Shown: positions 7,010 to 56,610, counted from the first letter of the stretch. The stretch: DNA of 64,000 nucleotides from an uncultured virus (IMG/VR IMGVR_UViG_3300002140_000088) (IMGVR_UViG_3300002140_000088); one strand, 5' to 3'. The notes: a model not told the origin generated them from the letters alone. Made by a program: numbers and translations.

Positions 7010-7288
7010 ATGAATGCTAGCTCAAAAAGCAGCAGGGAAAAAATTAGACATCGTAATCGTGAATATGTTAGAAAGATTAAAGAGTCTAGTTCCTGTGCTG
7101 ATTGTGGCAAAGCATACCATTACTATCAGATGGACTTTGATCATCTGGGAGATAAGAAACAAACAATTGCTAGACTTGCTAACTCAGAAGCTAGTATTAA
7201 AACAATTAAACAAGAAATCGCTAAGTGCGAACTAGTATGTTCTAATTGTCACAGATTAAGAACTTGGAATAGATTACAGGAGTCATAA
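7010..7288 (+). CDS. HNH-family endonuclease
   Basis: CADCG...MDFDH...EIAKCELVCSNCHRLRT. Confidence 0.85.
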   Translation: MNASSKSSREKIRHRNREYVRKIKESSSCADCGKAYHYYQMDFDHLGDKKQTIARLANSEASIKTIKQEIAKCELVCSNCHRLRTWNRLQES

Positions 7289-7911
7289 TGGCAACACAAA
7301 ATAAAATTAGTACCAACATGAACTACAACACCAATACGCCACAGCAGGCTAAAAGAAAAACTGCTGTTAGAAAAACATCTACTGGTATTAGTAATCGTGC
7401 TGCTACTAGGGATCGCAAGGTCAAGCACGAACGTTATGTCCTTCAAGAATCAAAGAGGGCATCAAAAATTCAGGTAGATCAAAACGTAGTATTAGTAGCA
7501 TGGATCATTGGTATTGGGATTGCATTCCTTTCATCCGCAGTAGTATCATTTAATGGTATTACTTCTGTAGCAGTCTTTGTAGGACTTGCTCAGGCATGGA
7601 TGGCTGGGCTATTCTTCTTCTTTGTTGAGATCATGTACCTATTGTTCTTGGTAGCCTACCTTGTATTAGCATCTAGGCTTGATGAAGATGAGCAGCAGGA
7701 GCGTACCAATGGTGCTCTATGGGGAATGATTTCCTTTGGTGGTATTGCTGTATTGGCTAATGCCTTTCATACCTTCAACTATTGGCAGTGGGCATGGGCA
7801 GAGCCTCAGATGTGGGCTGGTATTGTTCTAAGCATTTCAGCACCCATTGCTATCATTTCAGCAAGTAAGATGGCTTCGAGGGTAGTATTTGCTAAAGCTA
7901 TTAGTCTTTAA
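7288..7911 (+). CDS. integral membrane protein (about 4 TM)
   Basis: Basic N-terminus followed by four hydrophobic segments. Confidence 0.75.
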   Translation: MATQNKISTNMNYNTNTPQQAKRKTAVRKTSTGISNRAATRDRKVKHERYVLQESKRASKIQVDQNVVLVAWIIGIGIAFLSSAVVSFNGITSVAVFVGLAQAWMAGLFFFFVEIMYLLFLVAYLVLASRLDEDEQQERTNGALWGMISFGGIAVLANAFHTFNYWQWAWAEPQMWAGIVLSISAPIAIISASKMASRVVFAKAISL

Positions 7912-8626
7912 GTTCCCAACCATATTCATTAACCAAGGTTCTTAAGAAGTCTGCTTTATCTGGCGTACCACTATTTGCTTTGTCTTTCATTATTTTTTTA
8001 GACAGGGCATTAGGATCTGAGCCACCAATATGGATATTGCTTAATGGCACATACTTTAGTTTCCAGCCTTTAACATGCTGAGCAAAATAGGACAGCCAAA
8101 GATCTTCCATCAAATAAACCTCTTCTGGATGATTAAAAAGATTATCATCTAAGAAAATTGAAGCATCAACTATAGAGGCTGCTGTACCACAATAATGGAT
8201 TGTCTTTAAGTTATCAGAGGCTTTCTTCCTATGTCTGTAATAATCCTGACCGTTGTTTGAGAATCTCCAGGCATAGGCCGAGCAGTAGCTGTTTGGCTCA
8301 TATGTATCCAGTATCTCCTGGACATACTTCTCTGATATAGTTATATCATCATCAATAAATAATACTATTTCGGTACCGCTTTTGGCTAGGTCTCTAGCTA
8401 TAGTTAGTCTTCTATAGGCATAGTGCTCATTACTATCATGTGAAAGAGTTATGCTTAGTTTATCGGAAAAGTATTTGGCATACTGCTCTGCTGCCGCAGC
8501 ACTCCTCTCGCTTGAGTTGCTGACATACACGTCAAAGTCCCTATACGTCTGATTAGACAGAGTAAGTAGGGTTCTTTTTAAGGATGCGATCCTTTGCCAG
8601 GTTAGCAACACAATTGTAATTTTCAT
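7901..8626 (-). CDS. glycosyltransferase, GT2-like (GT-A fold)
   Basis: ITIVLLTWQR N-terminus, FIDDD DxD motif, MEDLWLS. Confidence 0.85.
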   Translation of the reverse strand: MKITIVLLTWQRIASLKRTLLTLSNQTYRDFDVYVSNSSERSAAAAEQYAKYFSDKLSITLSHDSNEHYAYRRLTIARDLAKSGTEIVLFIDDDITISEKYVQEILDTYEPNSYCSAYAWRFSNNGQDYYRHRKKASDNLKTIHYCGTAASIVDASIFLDDNLFNHPEEVYLMEDLWLSYFAQHVKGWKLKYVPLSNIHIGGSDPNALSKKIMKDKANSGTPDKADFLRTLVNEYGWELKD

Positions 8627-8640
8627 AAGCTATCTATATA

Positions 8641-8660
8641 ATATTACCATATGGTATTAT
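8641..8660. promoter_or_regulatory. back-to-back extended -10 promoters
   Basis: Palindrome taccatatggta gives TGGTATTAT on plus and TGGTAATAT on minus between divergent GT genes. Confidence 0.5.
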
Positions 8661-8686
8661 ATAAGTAAGGAAGGGGTCTGCGTCAA

Positions 8687-9631
8687 TTGGCAAACATTGT
8701 ATTTTTAGGTAACTTTAAAGTTAATTTTAGCTCTGAATCACACCACGCTAAAAGCTTAAAGTCTTTAGGGCACAAGGTCACAAAGCTACAAGAGCAACAC
8801 CATACAAGCCAGGACATACTTAGAGCAGCTTTATCTTCAGATCTTTTTATTTGGGTGCATACTCATGGCTGGAAAACTCCTGGAAATCTTGGAATGGATA
8901 TCGTTCTTACCGAGCTAAAGCAAAAAGGCATCCCCACAATGACATACCATTTAGATTTGTGGCTTGGACTAGAAAGAGAAAAAGATTTAGAGACAGACCC
9001 CATCTACAAAAGCATAGGACACTTCTTTACCGTAGATGAGCAAATGGCCAAATGGTTTAATAAAAACACATTGGTCAAGGGGCACTACATCCCTGCTGGA
9101 GTATACGATCAGGAGTGCTACTATCAAGCTACGGCTAAGAAGTTTGATGTTATCTTTGTTGGCAGTAAGGGCTACCATCATGAGTGGCCCTACCGCCCAA
9201 AACTTATTGAATGGTTAACCAACACATACCAAAGACGGTTCAGGCACTACGGGGGTGATGGACTTGGGGCAATGCGGGGAGAGCCTCTCAATACTTTATA
9301 TGCTAGAACAAAGGTTGTTGTTGGAGATACCCTATGCCCTGACTTTACTTACCCTAGCTATTGGTCTGATAGGGTATACGAAACCCTTGGTCGTGGTGGA
9401 TTTATTATTCACCCTTATATCAAAGGTATGGAAAAAGAATTTACTGATAAAGAACACTTAGTCTTTTATGAATATAATAATTTTAAACAATTAAAAGAGT
9501 TAATTGACTACTACCTGGAGAACGACGAAGAGCGTGAAAAGATCCGTCTTGCTGGTCATAACTTAGTTAAAAATAATTATACCTATAGGCATAGATGGGA
9601 AACAATTCTTAAGGAACTTAATATTGGATAA
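8687..9631 (+). CDS. glycosyltransferase, GT-B fold (CgeB/Glyco_trans_1_2-like)
   Basis: DVIFVGS, SDRVYETLGRGGF, IDYYLENDEEREKIRLAG...YTYRHRW; TTG start with SD. Confidence 0.85.
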   Translation: MANIVFLGNFKVNFSSESHHAKSLKSLGHKVTKLQEQHHTSQDILRAALSSDLFIWVHTHGWKTPGNLGMDIVLTELKQKGIPTMTYHLDLWLGLEREKDLETDPIYKSIGHFFTVDEQMAKWFNKNTLVKGHYIPAGVYDQECYYQATAKKFDVIFVGSKGYHHEWPYRPKLIEWLTNTYQRRFRHYGGDGLGAMRGEPLNTLYARTKVVVGDTLCPDFTYPSYWSDRVYETLGRGGFIIHPYIKGMEKEFTDKEHLVFYEYNNFKQLKELIDYYLENDEEREKIRLAGHNLVKNNYTYRHRWETILKELNIG

Positions 9632-10481
9632 GCCCAAAGCGTTTCTTCTTAGCTTTGAAGGACTATGTTTTGCTAATGACAAAGATGACTTCGGATTTGT
9701 TGAAGAGGCTTTTAATAAAAACAATATAAAGATTTTAAAGGTTTTTTCTTTGCCCAAGATAGATAGAGCATTTGTTGTATTGTCTGGATCCGATTTGGCA
9801 GGGATGGAGAAACTTGTTTCTAATGAGCTTCTGTCTATTAATAAAATAGTATTATTTATTACGTCTGATGAGCGTGGTGATTTTGATGTTGAAAGAATTC
9901 ATCACCCCAACATTATAATTTGGAAACAGTACCCATACAAGAGGCATAGGAAATATTTTAAGATGCCAATTGGTGCCCCAATGACAATGAAAAAGGATAT
10001 TCCAGAATATACAAGCAAGACAAACGAAGTATTCTTTGCTGGACAAATAACCCACAGTAGAAGGCGACAGTTAGCAAAAGCTATAAAAAATTTGAAAATA
10101 GATAATTATTTAGCGACTCCTGGTTTTATGCAAGGGGATCCAAGAAGCATTTACTATTCTAAAATGATAGCCTCAATGGTTGTTCCAGCCCCTGCTGGGA
10201 TAGCTTCAGTAGATTCTTTTAGATTCTATGAGGCATTAGAGATGTTAGCCCTTCCTATTGGAGACACAAAAACATCCAGAGGAAAACATTTTGACTTCTG
10301 GGAATTTCTTTTTGATGGCAAGGCCCCTACACCAAAGACAGATGACTGGAACAATCTAGGTGATATACTGTCTAGTATACAAAGTAACTACCCTGACAAC
10401 ATGCATCAAGCTGTATCCTGGTGGATTAAGTATAAGAGAGATTTTTCTAATAAGATTATGGAGCAAATAAATGAAGACTAA
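9624..10481 (+). CDS. glycosyltransferase, exostosin/GT47-like
   Basis: FFAGQITHSRR...Y...PAPAG...DSFRFYEALE.LALPI. Confidence 0.7.
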   Translation: MDKPKAFLLSFEGLCFANDKDDFGFVEEAFNKNNIKILKVFSLPKIDRAFVVLSGSDLAGMEKLVSNELLSINKIVLFITSDERGDFDVERIHHPNIIIWKQYPYKRHRKYFKMPIGAPMTMKKDIPEYTSKTNEVFFAGQITHSRRRQLAKAIKNLKIDNYLATPGFMQGDPRSIYYSKMIASMVVPAPAGIASVDSFRFYEALEMLALPIGDTKTSRGKHFDFWEFLFDGKAPTPKTDDWNNLGDILSSIQSNYPDNMHQAVSWWIKYKRDFSNKIMEQINED

Positions 10482-11229
10482 AGATATCACATTTATTGTA
10501 CCAACCTCTGTTCTAGTTACCCATCCAGATACTGCAATTATAGACCAAGTAATAGGATCCATCAGAAAGTACTTTCCAGATAATGAAATTATTTTACAGG
10601 TAGATGGTCTTAGAGAAGAGCAGCTACACCGTAAAGAACAATATGACGAATACAAGAATAGAATTCTGTGGAAATCGTTACATGAATATAAAAACGTTTT
10701 GCCCATTATACTTCCTGAGCATTGTCATCAGTCCACAATGATGGAAAGAACTATTGACATGATCGATACTCCGCTTATGTTTTATGTTGAGGGAGACATT
10801 GCATTCAAAGATAATTTAGATATTGACTGGGATGAGTTAGTCGCCATGCTCGCCTCGGAGAAGGCCTATACAGTTAGATTCTATACATTCAATAAGAGTA
10901 TTGAGAAGTCACACAAACGCCTAATGCTTGAGCAAGATGGAAACTTTATTAAGACATTCCAGTGGAGCCAGCAGCCACACCTTTCTTATGTATCTTATTA
11001 TAGAGATGTGGTACTTCCTAACACTACCCCGAAACTTTTTATTGAAGATAAGTTTTATGGTAAAGTTTTTTCTGACTGCCACGAAACAAAAGAGAGGTGG
11101 GACGAGCATCGACTCTGGCTCTATAACCCTCCCAAAAAAGACATAAGAATCGTTGACGACTTGAATGGTAGGAAGAATCTTAGAAAATTTACTTCCGATG
11201 ATGAAGCATGGGGGCTAACAGAAGCATGA
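10471..11229 (+). CDS. putative glycosyltransferase (GT-A fold)
   Basis: ITFIVPTS...SIRKYFP...FYVEGD; lies within the GT operon. Confidence 0.65.
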   Translation: MKTKDITFIVPTSVLVTHPDTAIIDQVIGSIRKYFPDNEIILQVDGLREEQLHRKEQYDEYKNRILWKSLHEYKNVLPIILPEHCHQSTMMERTIDMIDTPLMFYVEGDIAFKDNLDIDWDELVAMLASEKAYTVRFYTFNKSIEKSHKRLMLEQDGNFIKTFQWSQQPHLSYVSYYRDVVLPNTTPKLFIEDKFYGKVFSDCHETKERWDEHRLWLYNPPKKDIRIVDDLNGRKNLRKFTSDDEAWGLTEA

Positions 11230-12266
11230 GACTAGGAATCATTGCAAGATCAGATAAGACTGGGCTGGGGAATCAAACCTATGAGCTTACAAAAATGCTT
11301 AATCCAGACAAGGTGCTACTAATTAATTCTTTTTATTTTAATAAGAATGAACAGTTTCCAAAACTTTATAAGGGATATAATGTTACAGAAAGCTCACGTG
11401 GATTTATAACAGATGAAGAGGCTAGGAATTTTCTAGAGGGTCTTGATGCAGTATTAAGTTGCGAGACATTCTATAATAGAAACTTTATTAATATTGCTAA
11501 AAAAATGGGCGTAAAGACATTATTACAGTATAACTTTGAGTTTTTAGATAATCTAAGAGATCCAAACCTTCCTGTACCAGATGTGTTTATTGCTCCTAGC
11601 ATGTGGAACTTTGATGTAGTACTTAATAGTTTTGGCAAGAAAGCAAAGGTAGTCCATCTCCCACCACCAACATCTTTAGAAAAGTTTTCTTCTGCTAGGA
11701 AGTCAAACATAACAGACAAGCCACACAATAAGATTCTTCATATTGCTGGCAAAATAGCTGATGCTGACCGCAATGGTACTAACACAGTTATGGAGATGCT
11801 TAAACACTCTACCGCAGACTATGAGCTTGTGATCAAGGTACAGAACCCACAGAAGCTAGAGAGACCTCCAGCAGACTCTAGGTTACGCATAGACAGTAGT
11901 AACCCAGATAACAGTGCAGATCTTTACGTGGGTTTTGATGCAATGGTTTTGCCAAGAAGATATGCTGGGTTATGCCTGCCAATGAATGAAGCATTGTTGA
12001 GTGGCCTACCAGTCTTTATGACTAACATTTCCCCAAATAGTTTTGTGCTGCCAAAAGAATGGCTGGTAGAGTCTAAGCAGATTGACAAAATAAAAACAAG
12101 AACAGTCTTACCAGTCTATGCAGCAGACCCAATTGCTCTAGCCGCTATGGTTGATAACTTTGTTTCTAACCAGAATAGAGAAAACCAAAGAGCTTTTGAT
12201 CTTGGCAAAGAGTTGTTCTCTCCAGAGTCATTAAAAGAAAAGTATATTAGTCTTATTAGTCAGTAG
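11226..12266 (+). CDS. glycosyltransferase, GT4-like
   Basis: DAMVLPRRYAGLCLPMNEALLSGLPVFMT (variant of the GT4 EGFG...EA motif). Confidence 0.85.
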   Translation: MRLGIIARSDKTGLGNQTYELTKMLNPDKVLLINSFYFNKNEQFPKLYKGYNVTESSRGFITDEEARNFLEGLDAVLSCETFYNRNFINIAKKMGVKTLLQYNFEFLDNLRDPNLPVPDVFIAPSMWNFDVVLNSFGKKAKVVHLPPPTSLEKFSSARKSNITDKPHNKILHIAGKIADADRNGTNTVMEMLKHSTADYELVIKVQNPQKLERPPADSRLRIDSSNPDNSADLYVGFDAMVLPRRYAGLCLPMNEALLSGLPVFMTNISPNSFVLPKEWLVESKQIDKIKTRTVLPVYAADPIALAAMVDNFVSNQNRENQRAFDLGKELFSPESLKEKYISLISQ

Positions 12267-12357
12267 TTAAATTTAAGGGTATACACTAGTACCCCTAGTT
12301 TTGTCTAAAGCTCTCTAAGAGGCTCTCAGGGTCTTACCCTTGTATGGCAAAAGGAAA

Positions 12358-12440
12358 TGTCCCGTACAAGGAAATTCAGGCACGAAGGCCCGATCTAATA
12401 AATGGGTAACTAAACCATCACTAAGGTCCTGTACGGGACA
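12358..12440 (-). ncRNA. candidate structured small RNA (three-way junction)
   Basis: 11-bp perfect terminal inverted repeat enclosing two hairpins; extended -10 TGGTATAAT just upstream; U-rich run downstream. Confidence 0.6.
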
Positions 12441-12445
12441 GTTTA

Positions 12446-12454
12446 ATTATACCA
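12446..12454 (-). promoter_or_regulatory. extended -10 promoter
   Basis: TGGTATAAT between the terminator and the candidate RNA. Confidence 0.65.
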
Positions 12455-12465
12455 CGATAGCAAAT

Positions 12466-12498
12466 AGAAAACCCCAGGCTGCCGTGGCGAACCTGGGG
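12466..12498 (-). terminator. intrinsic terminator
   Basis: CCCCAGG-N13-CCTGGGG followed by TTTTCT. Confidence 0.7.
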
Positions 12499-12515: not shown

Positions 12516-12653
12516 CTACTTCTTGAACCAATCGGTTGTAGAAATACCAATTAAGTATTTTGCTCCAACAGTAATTCCAAAGATGGAACCAACAACTACA
12601 GCAGCTGACAAACTAATTGCAGCTGCCCATTCAAACACTAACCATGGACTCAT
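12516..12653 (-). CDS. small membrane protein (45 aa)
   Basis: SD aaggagag; MSPWLVFEWAAAISLSAAVVVGSIFGITVGAKYLIGISTTDWFKK. Confidence 0.65.
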   Translation of the reverse strand: MSPWLVFEWAAAISLSAAVVVGSIFGITVGAKYLIGISTTDWFKK

Positions 12654-12717
12654 TTTCTCTCCTTGTTTTTTGGTCTTCATTTTTCAAAGACAATTCTAGT
12701 ATACACCATTTCCCCAA

Positions 12718-17911: not shown

Positions 17912-17925
17912 TGTTACCCTTTCCG

Positions 17926-17999
17926 TACCCTCTGTGGGACTTGAACCCACGACTACCGAATTATGAGTTCGGGGCTCTAACCAGCTGAGCTAAGAGGGC
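17926..17999 (-). tRNA. tRNA with CAT anticodon (Ile2 or elongator Met)
   Basis: GCCCTCTTAGCTCAG...CCGAA-CTCATAA-TTCGG...GTTCAAGTCC...AGAGGGTA cloverleaf; no encoded CCA. Confidence 0.9.
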
Positions 18000-18013
18000 A
18001 TATTAAGTTATAG

Positions 18014-18091
18014 TCCCACGTCGAAGAATCGAACTTCGCTAGCCAATCGGCATCGGATTTACAGTCCAATTTCTGTCCCAGCAGCCATGGG
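18014..18091 (-). tRNA. atypical tRNA-Tyr(GTA)
   Basis: CTGTAAA loop, variable arm GCC-GATT-GGC, T arm CGAAG-TTCGATT-CTTCG; shortened D arm; C1-G72. Confidence 0.65.
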
Positions 18092-18108
18092 TTATATTAA
18101 GTTATTCG

Positions 18109-18182
18109 AGCCTTCTATCGGATTCGAACCGATGACCTACGCATTACAAGTGCGTTGCTCTGGCCAACTGAGCTAAGAAGGC
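18109..18182 (-). tRNA. tRNA-Thr(TGT)
   Basis: GCCTTCT...ACGCA-CTTGTAA-TGCGT...AGAAGGC cloverleaf. Confidence 0.92.
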
Positions 18183-18196
18183 AATGCTATGTTAGA

Positions 18197-18225
18197 AGTA
18201 TACCCCTTAAGATTATCTATGTCAA
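18197..18225 (-). promoter_or_regulatory. sigma70-type promoter inside the tRNA array
   Basis: TTGACA-17 bp-TATACT upstream of tRNA-Thr. Confidence 0.75.
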
Positions 18226-18275
18226 ATCTGATGCCGTACTAAGACATTTGTATTTGTTTGTGTACGACTACATTG

Positions 18276-18348
18276 CGACCCTGACCAGACTTGAACTGGC
18301 GACTTCCTCCGTGACAGGGAGGCACTCTAACCACTGAGCTACAGGGCC
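18276..18348 (-). tRNA. tRNA-Asp(GTC)
   Basis: GGCCCTG...CCTCC-CTGTCAC-GGAGG...CAGGGTCG cloverleaf. Confidence 0.92.
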
Positions 18349-18349
18349 G

Positions 18350-18420
18350 AGCAAATAGCAGGAATCGAACCAGCATCGTAACCTTGGCAAGGTTAAGTTT
18401 TACCACTAAACTATATTTGC
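18350..18420 (-). tRNA. tRNA-Gly(GCC)
   Basis: GCAAATA...AACC-TTGCCAA-GGTT...TATTTGCT cloverleaf. Confidence 0.88.
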
Positions 18421-18421
18421 G

Positions 18422-18493
18422 CTGGGATGGCAAGATTCGAACTTGCAACCTCGAAATTAACAGTTTCTTGCGCTACCATTGCGCCACATCCCA
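18422..18493 (-). tRNA. tRNA-Asn(GTT)
   Basis: TGGGATG...GAAA-CTGTTAA-TTTC...CATCCCAG cloverleaf. Confidence 0.88.
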
Positions 18494-27485: not shown

Positions 27486-27756
27486 CAGCAATATCCTTAA
27501 GCTGCTTCAAAGCCTTGATAACATCTTTTGGATTAACATTACAGGCATGACATATGCTTTCATCATTGTATGCCGAAAGTGGTGCATTGCATGACTTACA
27601 AAATCTTTTTTTGTTCATCATTTTAGCTCTGCGTCTTTGTGCATATTTTTGAGCTATCTTATCTTTTGTTGCTTCTTCCCTACACGCAGGAGAGCAATAG
27701 ATCTTATAGGATATTTTAGTCTCAAAGGGTGCGTCACACCATTGACAGTTCTTCAT
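27472..27756 (-). CDS. Zn-finger hypothetical protein
   Basis: Multiple CxxC motifs, YCSPAC. Confidence 0.75.
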   Translation of the reverse strand: MKNCQWCDAPFETKISYKIYCSPACREEATKDKIAQKYAQRRRAKMMNKKRFCKSCNAPLSAYNDESICHACNVNPKDVIKALKQLKDIADGKS

Positions 27757-28534
27757 TTATTGGCTCCAGAGAGTTAAGTTTAACGTCTCCCGTACCAGCA
27801 TCTGCACAAACCTTGGCCAGTGGACAAGTCTTGCAAATCTTTGAATTGGACCTATAGTTCTTGCTTGGAAGAGTTTTATCTTCCCAAGCCTTACGAACCG
27901 TTCTCATCCATTCAAATGCCTGGTCTACCCATTTAATGTAATAGTCATTTACTACAACAGGAATAGCCAACAGCTCGTGGTTATTCTTATTCTCGTATAC
28001 TAGTACACCCCTTGCTTTCTTTAGGATTTTCATATAAATAAGAAGCTGAATAAGGTGACCGCTCTTCGCCTTACGTGTCTTCTTGCGATACTCAAATCCT
28101 TCAGCCATAGCTGTTTTGATTTCTAGAAGAAGCTCTTCGCCTTTCCAGTTAACCATAACATCGCCATAGCCAAAGATTGGTGGATCGTTATAAGTAATCT
28201 TAAATTCTGAATCAACTACAATCCCAGCATCTGCCATTGCTTGCTGAATACGTTCGTGAGACTTAGTACCATTAGTCATATTGGCACCTGCAAATGGATC
28301 TGCATAGTCTTCAAATGTACCGCCCTCAAAAGCTAAATACCAATACCGTGCACATTCACCATGCCCATAGGCAATGGTAGATGGGGCAAAGGTTTTCTTT
28401 TGCTGATGCTTTGGGCCACGTTTAGCAATATATCCAGAGTTAATCTTTTCAATTAACTCTCCCATCTCTTGTCTTGCAGATGTGCTATCGCTGTCACTAG
28501 TTACCATAATTTGTTGCAATAAACTTTTAGTCAT
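27734..28534 (-). CDS. Cas4-like PD-(D/E)XK exonuclease
   Basis: PS...CAR, GTKSHERIQ, GYGD...EIKT, QLLIY, C-terminal CKTCPLAKVC. Confidence 0.85.
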   Translation of the reverse strand: MTKSLLQQIMVTSDSDSTSARQEMGELIEKINSGYIAKRGPKHQQKKTFAPSTIAYGHGECARYWYLAFEGGTFEDYADPFAGANMTNGTKSHERIQQAMADAGIVVDSEFKITYNDPPIFGYGDVMVNWKGEELLLEIKTAMAEGFEYRKKTRKAKSGHLIQLLIYMKILKKARGVLVYENKNNHELLAIPVVVNDYYIKWVDQAFEWMRTVRKAWEDKTLPSKNYRSNSKICKTCPLAKVCADAGTGDVKLNSLEPINEELSMV

Positions 28535-41399: not shown

Positions 41400-44300
41400 T
41401 TACAATACCTCGCTTAAAAATATATTCATAGAAGGACCTTTTGAATTTCTAGAATATTCTATATTATATACTACAAATCTAGAATCATTGGAAGATATTT
41501 GTTCAATAGAATCATTTGATTGATAGTCTATTGATACAATGTCTCCAAGCTGTATTGTTGGCATAGCAAAAATTTTAATTCCAACAGATTTTCTTGGCTT
41601 CATTATTTTTGAAATCATCCATGCCATTAAGTTATTTGCTTCATCCTGACTCTGAATATAAGAAGAAGAAATGTTAAACTCTTTTTTACCATAAGTTAGT
41701 CTACTATTTTTGATATCTAGGTAGTCCTGCTTTGCCCTAACTGGCGATACGATTAGACCATCTTCAGTTATGTCTGGATCTGAAAAATTACTAACTCTAT
41801 CAAAATAATCATCAACTGTAAGCTCTTTGTCTGTTGACTGAGTAAATGTTACACCCTGAATTCTTAGATAGTTCCCAGATGTTTCGTCTAGATTAAGAGC
41901 GGTATCAGTATTATTAAAGATTAAGAACTCTGCTCCATAAGCACTTGGGATAAATCCAGAAACTGTATACCCCTTCATTTTGTTAAATGTTTCAGACATG
42001 GCTGCATAAAGAGCTGGATATGCTTTATCATATTTAACATTGAAGTATGAACATTCTCGCATTATTGTTCCAAATTCTTCAAAATATATTCTGTACTTTG
42101 AAGGATCATTTGTTCCTATTCCAGAAAGATAGGTAGATTGAACAGAACCGCTAAGGGCATACTTTCTAAATGACTGAGAAACATCTAAGGAATCCGTCCC
42201 AAAGACACTATTGACTGGTGCATCTAGCTCAAAGATGGTGTTCTGGCTATAGTTATTTGCAATAGCATATATATTTTCAAACATTGCCCTGGTGCTTCCC
42301 CTGACAAATAATGCCATGTTATTATAAACTGGCAATGGGTCTGAATCATTAACAACAGCAATAATTTTATTATTAATCATTAGATAAAATTTTCTATTGT
42401 TGGTGTCAATGTCTTCGTATTCTACAGAAATATCATATACACTTGGGTTAGACTCATTAGCCATTCTGAATTGTCCAACCATTGTTCCATCATCAACAGT
42501 GATGTTGGTTACGCCCTGCCAAAGTTTAATTGGAATTGCCCTAGTGCTATCTGTTACTGGCTCATCACTTTCTAAGGCAACTTTTCTAACAATTTTATAA
42601 AAAACAACATTAAATAATCCAGAGCTATCCCCGTACTTTGATAAGTCATCTTGTGATAATGCCATTATTTCAAAGTAATACCCAACATTTGTTTCAGGAT
42701 TTACCATCATTCCAATTCCCGCAGATCCACCATAAATGGAGAATTGTTCGTCTAAAGAGTATTCTGGATTTAAGAAATAATTTAGACTATTGTAAATTAT
42801 TTGTTCATTTTCTTCTTGAGTGATTTTACCAATAATTCTCATTCTTGTTCCAAAGTGAGAAAATTTATTATCTAGTGGTTTATACGCATAAGAAATAAAA
42901 TCTATTGCCTCTCTGGCATTGTCTCCAGACTCAAACTCAAAAGATGGACCATCAAAAATTAAAGCAGACGACTGTATTGTTCCAGTCTGTGTTGATAAAA
43001 ATTTGTTAATATCTGTTTCACTGAATGATGATTTAGTTAAATAATTTTTAACAATACCATTTCTAGAAGAAGATTTTGCCAAGGAGTTATTGCTTTGGCC
43101 ATATCCAGCCTTGTCCAAAGCTGTGACCTCAAGCTCTTCAATAATTGATAAAATATTTTTATAGGATACATTATCGTAGTAGTACTGTATTTCTGTTTCA
43201 CCATCTTCTTGATCAACAAGGATTTCTTCTTGAGAAACATTGTACTGTGGGATAGTTTCTCCAACTTCTCTATTCAAAATAATCTTATTTGTATCATTAA
43301 AAGATTTTATAAATGAGTGAGTGCCGGATTGCTCTCTATAGGCTAATGCCAGTGTATGATTTCCTGTCCCAGCAGAAGTAAAAGTAACAACTGATCCATT
43401 AGCCTTTAGACTTAAATAGATATTGTTGGCATCAACTATTTTTACATAATATATAGTCGTTGTGTTTAGACCAGTAGGCAGTACACCATCAGTAAAAAGT
43501 TTTACTGTATCATTTTTAACTAATCCATGATCGTTTATGGGTATTTGATTTGGCTTATTTACTATGTCTATACTCGATATTTCTTTAGTTGCTGTATCTG
43601 GAACGACTTCAGATGAGGTTATAATTTCTTCTAGATCTTCAGAAAGCAAGCTAAAAGAATTATCATTTATTTTTTGCACATAATATTTTGTATTAAGATC
43701 AATACCAAATGGTAATGTACCTGTGCTCGAAAAAGTGATCTCGTCCATATCAAATAGTCCGTGGTTTGTAACAGAAATAATTGCTGGACTGGCTATTGTA
43801 ATTGAGTTTATTGTTTTTGTTATTTCTGTAGCTGGTCTAGTTGTAGCAACTCTGGTTGGAGAAACTAGTTGTCCAGAACCCTCAGAAATTTCAAGAAGGT
43901 TTCCTGCCTTAAGGCTAATATTGTCTGGAGATATTAGTGTGGTATTAAGTATTTCATCAATTAAATTAAGGATTACACAAAAACTTTCTCCATCACTAAG
44001 AGTTATGTCTTGGTCATTATGAGCTACTGGTGTTCCAGACAGGGTGCTTGAAACCAAAAACTCTGTGGCACTAATTACTGTGTGAACATAGAATGATGCA
44101 TACCTAGTTAGTCCACCAGATATTTGTTTTTCTATAAACCCTCCATCAGAGATTACTCCAAAGAAAACTCTTTCTCCAACATAAAAATTTTGAGATGAGG
44201 CTAGAGTCACTAAGACATAACCACTACCATCCTGAGTGATAGATTGTATCTCCAGTGTATCTGGAACTGTATCCAAAGATACTTTATGGGTTCCAGCTTG

Positions 44301-47300
44301 TGCTCCAGAAGATTGAATGGTTACGGCATTGCGAGAGTTAATCCTAGAATTTGCAATAGTAAAAGAATATTTGCTAATATTTTTGGGAGTAACAAAGTAT
44401 TGATCATCAACACTTAGATCTTGTGGTAAATTATCAGTTGTAACAAAAGAAATTGTATCGAATGGAGTAAAGTTATGGGGAATATCTGTTGTGAACTTTA
44501 GCTCTCCAACATTTTCTTGTGATGTGTCTGTCCAAGTTATTCCGTCATCAGATGTAGATACCTGCAGCTTATTACCAATGGCTAGCCAGTTGTTAGCATA
44601 ATTTATTTCATTAATTGTGCTAGTGCCAAATTTTGGCTTTACAGTTTTCCACTTTGTAATGTTCGTTGACCTGGACATTTCTCCATTATCTCCAGCGACA
44701 ATCCATTGACTATTGGCATATCTGACTGCCTTAATTGAATTTTTTAGTTTAGTATCTAGCTTGCTCCATGAAACTAAATTAGTAGATCTTGCTGTTTTTC
44801 CAGATGCACCAGAAATTATCCAGGTATTAGAACCGAAGTCTAGGTCAAATATATTACCAGTTTTAAATCCAGCATCTACAGCAACCCAGTCATCTGTATC
44901 AGAGGAATAGGATATGCATCCATTGTTTCCAACAACTACCCAATTAGCATTTCCATACGCTACTGAGTTTAGGTTAGTGTTTACAAATCTTTCTACCTTA
45001 TGAGAGGAGGGTGATTGAGAACTAACAAAATCTATTGGGATATAATCAGGCAAAGATAGTAAGTGTATGCTATCTTTATTCACTGCACGAACAGCATATT
45101 TTGTACTTGAAGAAACTCCTGATGGTAATGATCCAACATCTACTATTCTAACTTGTTCGTTATCAGAAAAGCCGTGTCGTTTTACTGTAAATGTTGCAGC
45201 AAGTTTGTTGTACCTATGAGTTCCAGCCCCAGAAGATGTAGTATTGATTGCAAGACCATTACTAGTTAATTTAAGTGCAAAGGTATCATTGCTCCTGTAG
45301 ATAACATAGTAGTCTGTTGAAGTGTCGAGTCCTGTTGGTAAAGATCCGCTAGTTGTTAGCCTAATCCTATCATTTTCTTTTAACCCATGACTTTTCTTTG
45401 TTAGTATCCCTGGCGTACCTTGAGTAATTGTAGATATTTGAATTCCACTTTCTTGGAAGGTAGCAGAAAGAACCTTCGACTGCTTATCATTAAATACTGT
45501 ATAGTCTAGCCTAGAAGTCTTGATATCCCACGTATCGCCGTCAGTAGAGGTAGCTATTAGTCCACTATTGCCAACTACCACCCATTTATTATTTTCATAA
45601 ATAATTTTATTAAGTTTTATGCTACCCAGCCCAGAAGCAATCTCTGTCCAAGACTCCCCGTCTTCAGAGTAGGCCATAGCAGAGGTGGTGGAACTTCCAT
45701 CTATTTCATATCCAACAGCTATCCACCTGCTAGTCGATGATGGGCCATCTCCGTAAGCTACAGAGTTAAAAGAAAAGTTATCAACAAAGTCTATGTCTGT
45801 TCCTACTACCCAGCTTTCTCCATCAACAGAAACTCTAAACTTTCCATCGTCACCAACACCAACCCATTGACCATCTCCATATGCCGCAGATGTTATTGCT
45901 CCAGCTTCTTCAATATCTATTAATACATTCATTTCAATTTTAGATTGATTATATACGCCTTTGGCTATACCATCATCAAACGTAGAGAATAAGTATTCTG
46001 AGTCCATGTGAATACCCCGTACTGGAGCATTCGTAGTTGTATCTGACCAATATTGTGGTAGGCCAGCATTATGATATGCAATAGCAGTTCCAAACTGTTC
46101 CCTACCGTGCTTACGAACTGAACCAGATTTCATTAAGGTGATTCCACTTATTTCTTCGTAGAAGGGCTCTGTGTAGATCCTGACACGTCCTGTAGGGTAA
46201 ATCTTGCCACCAAACTGTATTTTAGAGAAATAATTCTGGTACTCCCTAAGACTACTAACCCAAACATTACCTATACCAGATACGCTATATTCAATAGCAT
46301 CATACTTAATGATCTCTCCATTAGCATAGAAGTATCCATTGTATCTCGCTACCCAATATGCACCCTCGCCAAAATCAATAACATTGTTGACTATTTGGCT
46401 ATTTGCTACATATGGCTTTACATCAGATAGGTCAGAGTTTAGAGGAACTGCGGCAAGAGTATAAGAAGAAGAGCTTTGCTGTTCACCCTCAATTGACCTA
46501 AGAGGTGTTGTCCCAGCTACCTCCCAAAGTAATGCTGGTTGATATATCCAGTTTTGATCTTGATTAACATAGCTTGCTTCTTTTAAAGAGCCGTAGGTCT
46601 TAGCAATATATTTTTCCTGAAAAGTAATTTTTCCATCATTAAAAACTTCTTGATTCTTAGAAGATAGCTCTACGATGTTTGAAAGCTTTTGATTAACACT
46701 GTTATTCTCAACAACCCCTAATTTATTTTGATCAAGAGAACCAAGCAGCTCTAGATCTGTATCTCTCTCTCCAATGGTTGGCATCATATAATCTTTTGAC
46801 ATCAATGTTAGATTATTGTACTCATCAAAGAACATTGCAGTCTGTGTTGCTACAGCTAAATCTTGCAATACCTGAGCAACTGAGGTTTCTGGCTTTACGA
46901 AGAAATACGGAATAATAGGATCATCTTCTCCATCAATTCTTTTAAAGGTATAGTTAGAAAAACCAACAGAGTCAAGCAAGAATGATACTGCGTAGCTCAA
47001 GGATGCACTTTCTACTAATAGCTGTGGTGCATTCAACGATTCAAAGTAAAAGAAAAGGTCTCTTAGGGGTAGGGTTATTTTTCTACTATTACTCGATGAC
47101 TCTGGGAAACCGTCAGCATATAAAGTTTTTAAAGGTACGTGATAAGACGCTATTGAGTCTGAAAGGTTATAAATAATTTCAAATAGTTTAACTTGAAGAT
47201 TATTTGAAGTAAAGGTAGATAGAATGCTATCTGAATTATTTTTATTAAAAGAATCATCAAAGTCAAATATTTCCATTGATCCATTAGATGCTAATAATTG

Positions 47301-48608
47301 GCCAACTGGCATACCACTCATACCCAGGTCGGAAGCACTTTTATTAAAGTTAAAAGATACAATTCTATCTGTAATATTTGTAGTTAGCCTAGGAGAAAGT
47401 TCTAGCAAATCAAAAGTAGATCCAAACTTGTTCATTGTATCTACAACCACTCTTATACCACCGATGTACTCAAACTCTTTGTACTTTGTTTCTCCAGTAG
47501 AAGAATCAAGAAAGTATTCTGGATTAATGAAATTAGTTACAAAATTTGTTTCTTCAGATATGGCTTCCTCGCCAAGAGACCAGCCATAAGATGGTGTGAA
47601 TGTTTGATATTCCGCCCCATCCCATACATAGATAGAGCCAAGGTCGTTATCATTTTCCTGCACAAAGTATGCACTATTAATTGCTGGGCTTACCGGCAGC
47701 AGACTTTCAAATGGATATTTGCCATCAAAGTAAATGCTTCCCTTATATTCATCTGGAATAATTAGTCCGTATGAAATCTCTACATAGCCATCGGAGCTAA
47801 TTACTGCTAAACCATTAGACCTTGTTGACAGTGGATTAAATGATATAGCATCAGACCAGTTATTATTTTTTAATACCTGGATTTTCCAGTTAGTCGGTGT
47901 AGTCTGATTTACGGTGCCATAAAATGGATCATTGAATTCTAATCCTCCGCCCACGAATGGCCCAAGATCTACTTCGCCAACATTGGTTTGCATCTTGACA
48001 ACAATTTTATTAGTTGGAATATCTGATTTATATTTTATGAATGGGGCAGCATCATCAATATAGAATAATGCTCCAGCAGGATGATTTGCAATACCACGAT
48101 CAATACCATTTTCTTTACGGTATGATGTCCAATACTTAAAGGAGTCTTTACGACTAGCCATATAATACCGTGGCCTATTGGCTAAATCTGTATTAACAAA
48201 GTGCGTATAGTTATCTTCAAAATATCTAAGCTTATTAATCCCAGACCTTGGACGGAATCTCCTAAAGCAATCTTCTAAGGAATAAAGAAGTCTTTCTTTT
48301 TCATTTGGCTGGGTAAAAGCAATTGGAGAATCATCGTTCTCTAGCCCACCATCAATTACAATGTCTGCATCCGTAGCACCAGTATAAAACTTTACTTGAT
48401 TATTTGCATCATTTATATCAAATGACCCAGCTATTGTGGAGTATACTCCATCATCAGATGTTGGGCTTGCGGTTGGACGGTATCGATAGTTTCCAATAGT
48501 AGAAATGTTTTCAGCAACATTCATATTCCATTCAGCAATAGCCAGCGGTTTGCTATTAATACTTGATGAGGTTTCTAGATATTGTTGTAATTCTTCATTA
48601 ACAAACAT
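41400..48608 (-). CDS. large tail tip or central fibre protein (2402 aa)
   Basis: Downstream of TMP and Dit-like gene; internal beta-propeller blades and six HG-LP-YYV repeats; C-terminal IQLGDIV. Confidence 0.8.
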   Translation of the reverse strand: MFVNEELQQYLETSSSINSKPLAIAEWNMNVAENISTIGNYRYRPTASPTSDDGVYSTIAGSFDINDANNQVKFYTGATDADIVIDGGLENDDSPIAFTQPNEKERLLYSLEDCFRRFRPRSGINKLRYFEDNYTHFVNTDLANRPRYYMASRKDSFKYWTSYRKENGIDRGIANHPAGALFYIDDAAPFIKYKSDIPTNKIVVKMQTNVGEVDLGPFVGGGLEFNDPFYGTVNQTTPTNWKIQVLKNNNWSDAISFNPLSTRSNGLAVISSDGYVEISYGLIIPDEYKGSIYFDGKYPFESLLPVSPAINSAYFVQENDNDLGSIYVWDGAEYQTFTPSYGWSLGEEAISEETNFVTNFINPEYFLDSSTGETKYKEFEYIGGIRVVVDTMNKFGSTFDLLELSPRLTTNITDRIVSFNFNKSASDLGMSGMPVGQLLASNGSMEIFDFDDSFNKNNSDSILSTFTSNNLQVKLFEIIYNLSDSIASYHVPLKTLYADGFPESSSNSRKITLPLRDLFFYFESLNAPQLLVESASLSYAVSFLLDSVGFSNYTFKRIDGEDDPIIPYFFVKPETSVAQVLQDLAVATQTAMFFDEYNNLTLMSKDYMMPTIGERDTDLELLGSLDQNKLGVVENNSVNQKLSNIVELSSKNQEVFNDGKITFQEKYIAKTYGSLKEASYVNQDQNWIYQPALLWEVAGTTPLRSIEGEQQSSSSYTLAAVPLNSDLSDVKPYVANSQIVNNVIDFGEGAYWVARYNGYFYANGEIIKYDAIEYSVSGIGNVWVSSLREYQNYFSKIQFGGKIYPTGRVRIYTEPFYEEISGITLMKSGSVRKHGREQFGTAIAYHNAGLPQYWSDTTTNAPVRGIHMDSEYLFSTFDDGIAKGVYNQSKIEMNVLIDIEEAGAITSAAYGDGQWVGVGDDGKFRVSVDGESWVVGTDIDFVDNFSFNSVAYGDGPSSTSRWIAVGYEIDGSSTTSAMAYSEDGESWTEIASGLGSIKLNKIIYENNKWVVVGNSGLIATSTDGDTWDIKTSRLDYTVFNDKQSKVLSATFQESGIQISTITQGTPGILTKKSHGLKENDRIRLTTSGSLPTGLDTSTDYYVIYRSNDTFALKLTSNGLAINTTSSGAGTHRYNKLAATFTVKRHGFSDNEQVRIVDVGSLPSGVSSSTKYAVRAVNKDSIHLLSLPDYIPIDFVSSQSPSSHKVERFVNTNLNSVAYGNANWVVVGNNGCISYSSDTDDWVAVDAGFKTGNIFDLDFGSNTWIISGASGKTARSTNLVSWSKLDTKLKNSIKAVRYANSQWIVAGDNGEMSRSTNITKWKTVKPKFGTSTINEINYANNWLAIGNKLQVSTSDDGITWTDTSQENVGELKFTTDIPHNFTPFDTISFVTTDNLPQDLSVDDQYFVTPKNISKYSFTIANSRINSRNAVTIQSSGAQAGTHKVSLDTVPDTLEIQSITQDGSGYVLVTLASSQNFYVGERVFFGVISDGGFIEKQISGGLTRYASFYVHTVISATEFLVSSTLSGTPVAHNDQDITLSDGESFCVILNLIDEILNTTLISPDNISLKAGNLLEISEGSGQLVSPTRVATTRPATEITKTINSITIASPAIISVTNHGLFDMDEITFSSTGTLPFGIDLNTKYYVQKINDNSFSLLSEDLEEIITSSEVVPDTATKEISSIDIVNKPNQIPINDHGLVKNDTVKLFTDGVLPTGLNTTTIYYVKIVDANNIYLSLKANGSVVTFTSAGTGNHTLALAYREQSGTHSFIKSFNDTNKIILNREVGETIPQYNVSQEEILVDQEDGETEIQYYYDNVSYKNILSIIEELEVTALDKAGYGQSNNSLAKSSSRNGIVKNYLTKSSFSETDINKFLSTQTGTIQSSALIFDGPSFEFESGDNAREAIDFISYAYKPLDNKFSHFGTRMRIIGKITQEENEQIIYNSLNYFLNPEYSLDEQFSIYGGSAGIGMMVNPETNVGYYFEIMALSQDDLSKYGDSSGLFNVVFYKIVRKVALESDEPVTDSTRAIPIKLWQGVTNITVDDGTMVGQFRMANESNPSVYDISVEYEDIDTNNRKFYLMINNKIIAVVNDSDPLPVYNNMALFVRGSTRAMFENIYAIANNYSQNTIFELDAPVNSVFGTDSLDVSQSFRKYALSGSVQSTYLSGIGTNDPSKYRIYFEEFGTIMRECSYFNVKYDKAYPALYAAMSETFNKMKGYTVSGFIPSAYGAEFLIFNNTDTALNLDETSGNYLRIQGVTFTQSTDKELTVDDYFDRVSNFSDPDITEDGLIVSPVRAKQDYLDIKNSRLTYGKKEFNISSSYIQSQDEANNLMAWMISKIMKPRKSVGIKIFAMPTIQLGDIVSIDYQSNDSIEQISSNDSRFVVYNIEYSRNSKGPSMNIFLSEVL

Positions 48609-49265
48609 CTATACCTCTTCCAAATCTACGCTTACATTCCAAAAGTCAAAGCTTGTGTTACCTCGCTTTACAACATTATAACTAAAAGTATTAAAGAATA
48701 CCTCAATGACTTGGCTATACTTGTTTAAGTTGTTGTATTCAGCATCAGCATCAGCTAAATCTTTAAAGTTGGTGTGCTTATCATATGACAGATATAGCCA
48801 GAATGATCCAGTATATCTTTCATACCAGTCTAGCATATCTACCCCGCCAGCACCGCCATCAACGGTAAACTCTTCATTACTTGTTTTATTATATGGTGAT
48901 AAACCATTAGAATTAAAGTCTGGGAAAAGGTGGTATGCCCTAGAAGGAATCATATCCCAACTAGTCGATACTGAAAGCTTATCGGCAACATGATATGAAC
49001 GCATCCTGCCATTTGCCATTCTTTCTTTTGTTTCAATTCTTTCAATAGAAAAATCAATATCTTGACGGTTATGGTCAGAAAGAATTAAGAATTCATGTTC
49101 ATCAGTTGTTGAATATGCAGCTGATCCAATCTCATTACCAAGCGGCACATGGTAAATACTATCGGTATCAGGATCTTGAACGGTAGTACCAGAGTTATTA
49201 GCCCAGAGCATGGCTTGCGGTCTGCCATATTTTTTTCTACCCTGCATATAAGATAAGCTAGCCAT
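48609..49265 (-). CDS. distal tail (Dit)-like protein
   Basis: Directly after TMP; ERMANGRMRSY and C-terminal WNVSVDLEEV. Confidence 0.7.
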   Translation of the reverse strand: MASLSYMQGRKKYGRPQAMLWANNSGTTVQDPDTDSIYHVPLGNEIGSAAYSTTDEHEFLILSDHNRQDIDFSIERIETKERMANGRMRSYHVADKLSVSTSWDMIPSRAYHLFPDFNSNGLSPYNKTSNEEFTVDGGAGGVDMLDWYERYTGSFWLYLSYDKHTNFKDLADADAEYNNLNKYSQVIEVFFNTFSYNVVKRGNTSFDFWNVSVDLEEV

Positions 49266-56593: not shown

Positions 56594-56610
56594 GAACAAT
56601 TACTCCCTTA

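Follow-up and report, generated by a model that had tools for sequence, protein, structure and literature searches.

The minus strand at positions 12349-12454 of the window (the whole stretch of uncultured-virus DNA that was analysed, 64,000 nucleotides) very probably carries a real RNA gene, a self-contained unit for a small non-coding RNA of an uncatalogued family. The best explanation overall, to which we give about an even chance, is that this is a separately promoted RNA scaffold which displays an invariant element in trans, with a protein as the most likely partner. The features on which the argument rests are the following.

12462..12498, minus strand: intrinsic-terminator-like hairpin CCCCAGG...CCTGGGG with T-run, read from the sequence
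12446..12454, minus strand: extended -10 element TGGTATAAT of the RNA gene, from the motif and comparative counts
12349..12439, minus strand: predicted transcript, from +1 at G12439 to the U-rich tail, its ends placed by -10 spacing and anatomy
12428..12440, minus strand: 5' strand of the closing helix P1, UGUCCCGUACAGG, pairing with 12358-12370
12401..12427, minus strand: J1 ACCUUAGU and hairpin 1 GAUGG-UUUAGUUAC-CCAUU, with the conserved family core CUURG-GAUGG-N(U)UAGUUACC
12394..12400, minus strand: J2 UAUUAGA, variable in the family, which may pair with J1
12376..12393, minus strand: hairpin 2 UCGGGC-CUUCGU-GCCUGA, its place kept and its sequence varying
Minus strand, between hairpin 2 and the 3' strand of P1: J3 AUUUC
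12358..12370, minus strand: 3' strand of P1, CUUGUACGGGACA, from covariation and minimum-energy (MFE) folds
12349-12357, minus strand: U-rich tail UUUCCUUUU, 3' of P1
7010..7288, plus strand: small HNH endonuclease gene, 92 aa (tblastn 50% identity, E 6e-22; phrog_2255)

A sequence-only reading of this DNA had described a terminator, then TGGTATAAT, then an 83-nt fold with paired ends on the minus strand, and this order is borne out by the sequence, in which UGUCCCGUACAGG begins five bases past TGGTATAAT. The upstream hairpin (12472-12498) has 7 bp, is G+C-rich, is followed by the T-run and lies 3' of the stop of a 54-aa ORF at 12516-12680; the whole terminator-like element closes a long minus-strand gene array. 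It is absent from the list of a simple terminator scan, probably because its 13-nt loop exceeds the limit of that scan. The window element has an MFE of -34.4 kcal/mol (z -5.45), and none of 200 shuffled sequences was as stable; for the 83-nt core the fold z is -5.03. A covariance-model search finds one copy of the RNA gene in the window. Among 20 runs from 8 studies there was a single RNA run, and the match of its contigs to the window ends at 12332, outside the element. The transcript itself is inferred from comparative anatomy.

Relatives of the RNA were collected by several routes. A search of 50,697 deposited phage records with two queries gave no similar sequence and no cultured relative. 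The nearest viral record, G001, has an identical copy of the RNA. Anchoring on flanking proteins yielded 42 viral loci, and in four of them (L024-L027) the RNA was detected by sensitive BLAST and a single-sequence covariance model, R1. A scan with a P1 14-mer added L051 and L099 (60 loci in all, mostly chance), a hairpin-2 16-mer added L114, and when metagenomes were scanned with a 19-mer of hairpin 2, the RNA was present in 26 of the 35 loci obtained. A hairpin-1 pattern was found in at least 119 viral contigs, and of 78 loci from this pattern that were searched with the family model R2, 76 gave a full-length copy. An exact-stem search found nothing. Anchoring on F0, a protein encoded downstream, was used against ascertainment by RNA sequence; the best 80 of 599 relatives were kept, 79 loci were searched with R2, and 18 of them had the RNA, which mostly ends 20-25 nt before the F0 start. 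Altogether 86 copies, 84 of them distinct, were aligned from viral and metagenome contigs. It should be noted here that most copies were found by patterns taken from the RNA itself and that two alignments were fitted to our structure model, so that support for the structure as drawn is favoured.

Between phages with about 45% identity in the flanking protein, the RNA retains about 90% identity. Exactly one copy is carried by every one of five long records, of which three are rated complete (110-117 kb). In phages that have F1 or F11, proteins encoded in the flanks, and lack the RNA, a model search found no divergent copy, and most of these phages have no gap after F1. Two loci with a distant F1 homolog and no RNA (L041/L042:3405-3545) have a 121-nt gap after F1 with another stem, AAGGATC...GATCCTT, unrelated to the RNA by model. 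Habitat labels of the runs containing the stretch are those of aquatic or marine metagenomes. A literature search covering titles and the openings of abstracts found no published mention of the RNA or its motif.

A hexamer that matches TATAAT in at least five of six positions occurs at the expected place in all 84 distinct copies. When a control window shifted 22 nt upstream was scored in the same manner, 5/84 copies had such a hexamer. The hexamer at the expected place is TATAAT in 49 copies, TACAAT in 24, TATACT in 8 and TAAAAT in 3. The hexamer is separated from the first paired base by 5-6 nt in 75/84, this base is a purine in 74/84 and TGN precedes the hexamer in 33/84. In the window the word TGNTATAAT occurs 5 times where 5.8 are expected, that is, without enrichment, and the promoter call is therefore based on the comparative evidence and not on the motif alone. 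The sequences before the box are unrelated from lineage to lineage: some are ends of coding regions, some have a stop codon that overlaps the box, and some are terminators; several relatives have a terminator hairpin immediately 5' of the box. The fixed place of the box and its conserved spacing agree with the earlier proposals of an independent, promoter-driven RNA and of a start at the base of the helix.

At the other end of the gene, at least four T are present among the 8 nt after P1 in 74/84 copies, and TTT within 6 nt of P1 in only 41/84, so that termination may be leaky. This bears on the proposal that the element works in cis, as a leader, insulator, terminator or put-like antitermination signal for the genes downstream. 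Most relatives have a co-directional gene within 10-30 nt of the RNA, and read-through is plausible since the U-tail is weak in about half of the copies. However, the genes that follow differ by lineage (F0, F4, GT-like, HNH, Dps-like) and have their own -10 box with the ATG close after it; the window has no co-directional gene after the RNA, which faces the 3' end of a convergent operon; and a perfect closing helix of 12-15 bp makes a poor switch. A role in cis is thus improbable. At many loci (for example L051:2590-2615 and L114:2540-2570) the ATG lies 5-7 nt past a TGNTA(G/T)AAT box without a Shine-Dalgarno sequence. Judged from this anatomy, the downstream genes look like leaderless transcripts, which matches what the sequence-only reading had supposed for this phage group.

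The core of the RNA is a three-way junction made of P1 and two hairpins, with a fourth helix in some lineages. At the level of comparative sequence, P1 is proven by covariation. In the first alignment (A4) 7 of 13 pairs show compensatory change, which none of 500 shuffles equalled and for which slid controls gave 0-1. RNAalifold, run on the MAFFT alignment of 86 sequences, retains 10 pairs, and compensatory changes are seen in 9 of them (one pair, for example, is AU in 56 sequences, GC in 19, CG in 7 and UA in 3); from this plain alignment it recovers P1 only. A helix of at least 11 bp forms in each of the 84 individual MFE folds. The P1 cells of the 86 sequences include 33 G.U and no A.C, and the reverse strand scores 20 bits against 118.5 bits with the model, from which it follows that the fold belongs to the minus strand as RNA. 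The check in relatives that had been suggested with the original reading has returned both conservation and P1 covariation in viral and metagenome copies.

In all 84 copies folding predicts hairpin 2 at one and the same position, with 14 types of innermost helix (GGC/GCU in 37 and GGC/GCC in 28, followed by GGC/GUC, UGC/GCA and others) and 25 loop sequences including GCAA; the basis here is per-sequence folding and not a column-wise count. Hairpin 1 behaves differently, as the sequence of its 5' strand and loop is kept and its 3' strand drifts (CCAUU, CUAUU, CCAAA, CCUGA, CUUG). With the 5' strand fixed and the 3' strand diverging in several lineages, hairpin 1 may not form in the way drawn. 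A two-arm interior appears in only 46/84 MFE folds, and by folding the interior is not robust.

The sequence-only reading had laid stress on three unpaired UUAG motifs, two in junctions and one in a loop, and only part of this stands. UUAG does occur three times in the window RNA. In the family the J1 motif is UUAG in 72/84 and UURG in 83/84, and the loop has UUAG in 75/84 and UAGUUA in every copy; some lineages have CUAG. The J2 motif, on the other hand, is present in 8/84, all in the window's subgroup, and in 0/16 of the unbiased set. Nor does the word unpaired hold generally. The MFE fold of the window RNA pairs the UUAG of J1 with that of J2, and UAGUUA is wholly unpaired in 45/84 MFE folds. 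In several lineages J2 has UAAG/UUAAG, the complement of CUUAG/CUUGG in J1, and in L114 the two form a continuous 10-bp helix; the four J1-J2 pairs of the first alignment are paired in 78% of cells and show no compensatory change. J1 and J2 may pair with each other. On the comparative counts, the emphasis on three UUAG motifs is replaced by one invariant loop motif and a conserved UURG in J1.

The conserved heart of the family is about 20 nt long, CUU(A/G)G-GAUGG-N(U)UAGUUACC. In the F0-anchored set, which was chosen without reference to the RNA, UAGUUACC is invariant (16/16), the preceding CUURG-GAUGGA is nearly so, and conservation collapses directly past ACC. J2 and J3 are variable across the family. 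An insertion of 10-25 nt in J1 of L194/L308 and L235 can form an extra small hairpin, which gives a four-way junction.

This pattern can be compared with that of a stand-alone aptamer, a riboswitch-like three-way junction which would sense or sequester a small molecule. Purine riboswitches are three-way-junction aptamers of similar architecture, and the window RNA shares with such elements P1 and two hairpins, conserved nucleotides near the junction and a size of about 70-85 nt. In aptamers, however, the junctions are usually the best conserved part, whereas J2 and J3 vary here and some lineages insert the extra J1 hairpin; there is no expression platform, and no Rfam riboswitch matches up to E 10. 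An aptamer is a very improbable reading.

Identity tests point away from the catalogued families. Rfam 15 at the gathering score found only five tRNAs in the whole window. Between 12150 and 12750, with E up to 10, there were three chance matches, none of them on the RNA, and eight diverse members of the family searched with E up to 1 gave on the RNA only PK-repZ, whose 22.7 bits (E 0.61) fall short of the cut-off of 44. That the family was unfamiliar, as had been said, agrees with the lack of an Rfam match in this covariance-model search, and the statement that it is not a tRNA likewise agrees with ARAGORN and RF00005, neither of which matches at 12358-12440. A tRNA or tmRNA was rejected also on anatomy, the closing helix having 13 bp and not 7; the six tRNAs of ARAGORN lie at 17925-18493. 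Mimicry of the GTPase-associated centre of 23S rRNA (H42-H44), of the kind seen in L10/L11 leaders, was considered and dropped: R2, with filters off, has no match there in three 23S rRNAs, and alignments of the interior to 23S were no better than shuffles in 42 tests. A host-derived RNA was rejected as well. The hairpin-2 19-mer had 14 hits in species-representative genomes, all partial chance matches, and among 401 sampled Actinomycetes genomes the core, with at most one mismatch allowed, was present in 7; none of these matches was exact, and a reversed control was found at least as often.

The window is a part of a tailed phage genome with 38-40% G+C. Its minus-strand array encodes a head protease, capsid, tape measure (2444 aa), tail proteins, helicase, primase, DNA polymerase and recombinase, and continues with ribonucleotide reductase, six tRNAs, endolysin, holin, a WhiB-like regulator and three small ORFs. 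The RNA gene is the last unit of this array and sits after the lysis-WhiB-F2-F1 block. The tail module, with its long tape measure, is of siphovirus type. The WhiB-like gene, together with the aquatic or marine habitat labels, suggests an actinobacterial host, and the WhiB gene makes the actinophage origin that had been supposed plausible.

Some other genes of the window may be recorded here. ORFs 41400-48608 and 49265-56599 (minus strand) encode 2402 and 2444 aa, a minor-tail-like protein and the tape measure, which has an embedded peptidase-type region. A gene for a Cas4-domain exonuclease-like protein (27734-28534, minus strand; phrog_1706) lies amid the replication genes. The minus-strand tRNA genes at 17925-18493 are Asn, Gly, Asp, Thr, Tyr and Met by ARAGORN; the one missing from the five Rfam calls is the 79-nt tRNA-Tyr at 18013-18091.

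On the other side, the glycosyltransferase block of the plus strand (7010-12266) converges with its 3' end on the RNA gene; its genes of glycosyltransferase type are assigned to phrog_28745 and phrog_2170, and PF00535 is on the opposite-strand ORF 7901-8626. A terminator-like hairpin of this convergent operon is present at 12277-12294 (plus strand), 64 nt past the RNA 3' end. Together with the upstream hairpin it brackets the RNA gene between the terminators of both converging units.

In the relatives the neighbourhood is of another composition. A gene for Hsp20 lies directly upstream in 48/86 loci at a median of 13 nt (PF00011, E 9.6e-18; phrog_432), and at these loci, L216:1050-1466 and 47 others, the 3' end of this gene adjoins or runs into the RNA -10 box. 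The vicinity of the RNA also includes GroES and a Dps/ferritin-like gene. F0 follows the RNA in 42 of the 86 loci. tRNA genes are present in the fetched flanks of 17/60 loci, usually upstream on the same strand; Asn-Gly(-Glu/Asp) arrays are a recurrent form, at about 0.5 kb from the RNA on its upstream side. The accessory genes at the adjacent spot include F4, a GT2-like gene, Dps-like, CHAP/PG-binding and Hsp20; F0, F4, the GT2-like gene and Hsp20 are all absent from the window. Since relatives carry different genes there, the spot beside the RNA is a variable accessory island. In G404, a complete genome, downstream of the RNA come Dps-like, F0-like and glycosyltransferase genes, a reversed HNH gene, sugar-nucleotide enzymes, GroES and thymidylate synthase. 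By gene content, the RNA neighbourhood of G404 is an accessory island and not a packaging module.

This location bears on a possible role as packaging RNA of the phi29 pRNA kind. In common with phi29 pRNA (RF00044) the window RNA is a phage small RNA with a three-way junction and its own promoter, and F0 shares a domain with proteins encoded beside portal or head genes in other phages. The pRNA, however, is 120-174 nt long, forms multimers through complementary kissing loops and belongs to phi29-like podoviruses, whereas the window RNA has an 83-nt fold in a genome of siphovirus type and its family has 25 loop sequences in hairpin 2, loops that are not complementary, and no Rfam hit; as the hairpin-2 loop varies freely, there are no conserved complementary multimerisation loops. 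The tail module does not fit a phi29-like layout, the RNA of G404 stands beside accessory and not packaging genes, and the window lacks F0. A packaging role is hardly credible.

Another companion of the RNA is the small HNH gene. By neighbour clustering it stands directly downstream on the same strand, at a median distance of 26 nt; tblastn finds it in the fetched flanks of 49/86 loci, on the RNA's strand in 38 and on the opposite strand in 11. For ten of the 37 HNH-negative loci, all on contigs of at least 40 kb, the longer contig was tested, and a homolog was found in 10/10 (one copy in nine, two copies in one), always on the downstream side of the RNA and 1.4-8.5 kb away. The open frames in relatives have 81-153 aa. 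In the window the HNH gene (phrog_2255, E 9.7e-22) is the first gene of the reversed glycosyltransferase block, 5 kb from the RNA and on the opposite strand. The homolog at G408:C1:70125-70349 has an in-frame TAG inside the match and is possibly a decaying copy. In cos phages, packaging-associated HNH genes stand beside terminase and portal genes. This arrangement was rejected here, as HNH lies among glycosyltransferase and sugar-nucleotide genes in G404 and heads the glycosyltransferase block in the window.

The borders of the element are sharp. In DNA contigs from other samples the segment 12359-12452, which is the box and the RNA, is kept as an island and the flanks are replaced; one DNA contig has 1519 unrelated letters inserted directly past the RNA 3' end, and assembly breaks cluster at the borders of the element. 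The conserved unit therefore runs from the promoter through the closing helix. Replaced flanks, contig breaks and an HNH gene at so many loci are also what would be expected of a feature of the DNA itself, a homing or recombination site or a cassette boundary, with the RNA fold incidental. But such a site gives no account of a helix with G.U and no A.C, of a fixed -10 box, or of a hairpin 2 that keeps its place while its sequence varies, and we consider it a very remote explanation. The DNA-level reading is more fitting as something that follows secondarily from the gene being conserved, these RNA features being left unexplained by a DNA site. It could be possible that the RNA gene, because its DNA is so conserved, serves as the edge at which cassettes are exchanged; it would then be a fixed border and recombination anchor for the accessory island. 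Homing nucleases persist beside conserved genes, and the RNA gene is probably the homing neighbourhood of the small free-standing HNH.

Among known systems, the closest description is that of the small stable RNAs of the T4 tRNA region, species 1 and 2 (rnaC/rnaD), with the SegB homing endonuclease; a relation by sequence or model is not to be expected. By description, both are structured phage RNAs of about 80-140 nt which are not tRNAs and have no known role, near tRNA genes (here in 17/60 loci) and a free-standing homing nuclease (here the small HNH). The T4 species, however, are cut from a tRNA precursor and sit in the tRNA region, whereas the window RNA has its own promoter and terminator, lies 5.5 kb from the tRNA array and belongs to another host clade. 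The bacterial and phage Y RNA-like RNAs (YrlA) and other protein-sequestering RNAs such as 6S also have a long, protective end-closing helix and a conserved module shown to a protein partner, as is proposed here; the window RNA does not match the Y_RNA, YrlA or 6S models, and no Ro/Rsr gene was seen in its surroundings. HEARO, the omega-RNA of IscB, is likewise a structured RNA linked to an HNH-domain protein. It is several times longer and has a large RuvC-HNH nuclease directly downstream, whereas the HNH of this family has 81-153 aa, belongs to phrog_2255 and may lie kilobases away or on the other strand, and the RNA has no Rfam hit. Taken at the level of sequence, this is a new RNA family within a known general kind, the stable small RNAs encoded by phages.

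The mechanism which we propose begins with a host-type RNA polymerase, which would start from TGGTATAAT so that the first transcribed base, G12439, is the base of the closing helix. The 13-bp closing helix and the U-rich tail would end the transcript, and the product would be about 85-90 nt long, its two ends held in a helix. As both ends are base-paired the RNA would be long-lived and abundant, and as its promoter is of host type this abundance would hold from early infection. P1 and the variable hairpin 2 would be the scaffold for the near-invariant CUURG-GAUGG-N(U)UAGUUACC, and CUURG-GAUGG-NUUAGUUACC would be recognised in trans by a protein of host or phage, the RNA acting as sponge, decoy or cofactor. 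Judged from the conservation pattern, action in trans through the hairpin-1 motif is somewhat favoured; that the partner is a protein is a tentative assignment, a little short of an even chance.

The main competitor for the invariant loop is antisense pairing, in which the loop and its flank, UUAGUUACC, on hairpin 1 would seed pairing with a host or phage mRNA and alter its translation or stability. An invariant loop of 8-9 nt on a stable scaffold does resemble loop-seeded antisense RNAs, and UUAG, as well as the CUAG of some lineages, would fit the YUNR U-turn loop motif of such RNAs. The search for targets went the other way. The 20-nt core, allowing up to three mismatches, has no complementary site in the 64-kb window, the best short matches are at chance level, and no target turned up in the neighbouring genes either. 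The loop complement GTAACTA occurs in 10/86 loci, fewer than 7 of 8 composition-matched controls and without a consistent position, and no conserved complementary 16-mer was found on either strand of 401 Actinomycetes genomes. Seeds of 6-8 nt in the host may still exist. Antisense action is unlikely on this evidence, and a protein partner is favoured over it, with modest confidence, because the sequence and not the pairing is conserved and no complementary RNA was found.

A narrower form of the protein-partner reading is a decoy for takeover or anti-defence, in which the stable RNA, made at once from its host-type promoter, would flood the cell with the invariant CUURG-GAUGG-NUUAGUUACC module and titrate a conserved RNA-binding factor of aquatic Actinomycetota. 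The target might be, for example, an RNA-targeting defence nuclease or a factor of translation or RNA decay. This is a rather unlikely version. In a bolder variant of it, compatible with the genome-wide co-occurrence, the RNA may act with the small HNH nuclease, for instance by tethering or directing it.

To our knowledge, phage structured RNAs with proven roles are few, and pRNA, RNA anti-CRISPRs and tRNA-based counter-defence have each opened a mechanism. The present RNA family is an abundant one: it is known from at least 119 viral contigs, and phages of about 110 kb have it once in each genome. It is conserved far above its protein-coding surroundings, in phages whose hosts would be dominant, hard-to-culture aquatic bacteria. 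The model supplied here, with exact gene borders, a covarying scaffold and an invariant display element of 8-20 nt, makes the function testable. In addition, the RNA can be used as a marker for the phage group and as a landmark for the movement of accessory cassettes and HNH genes.
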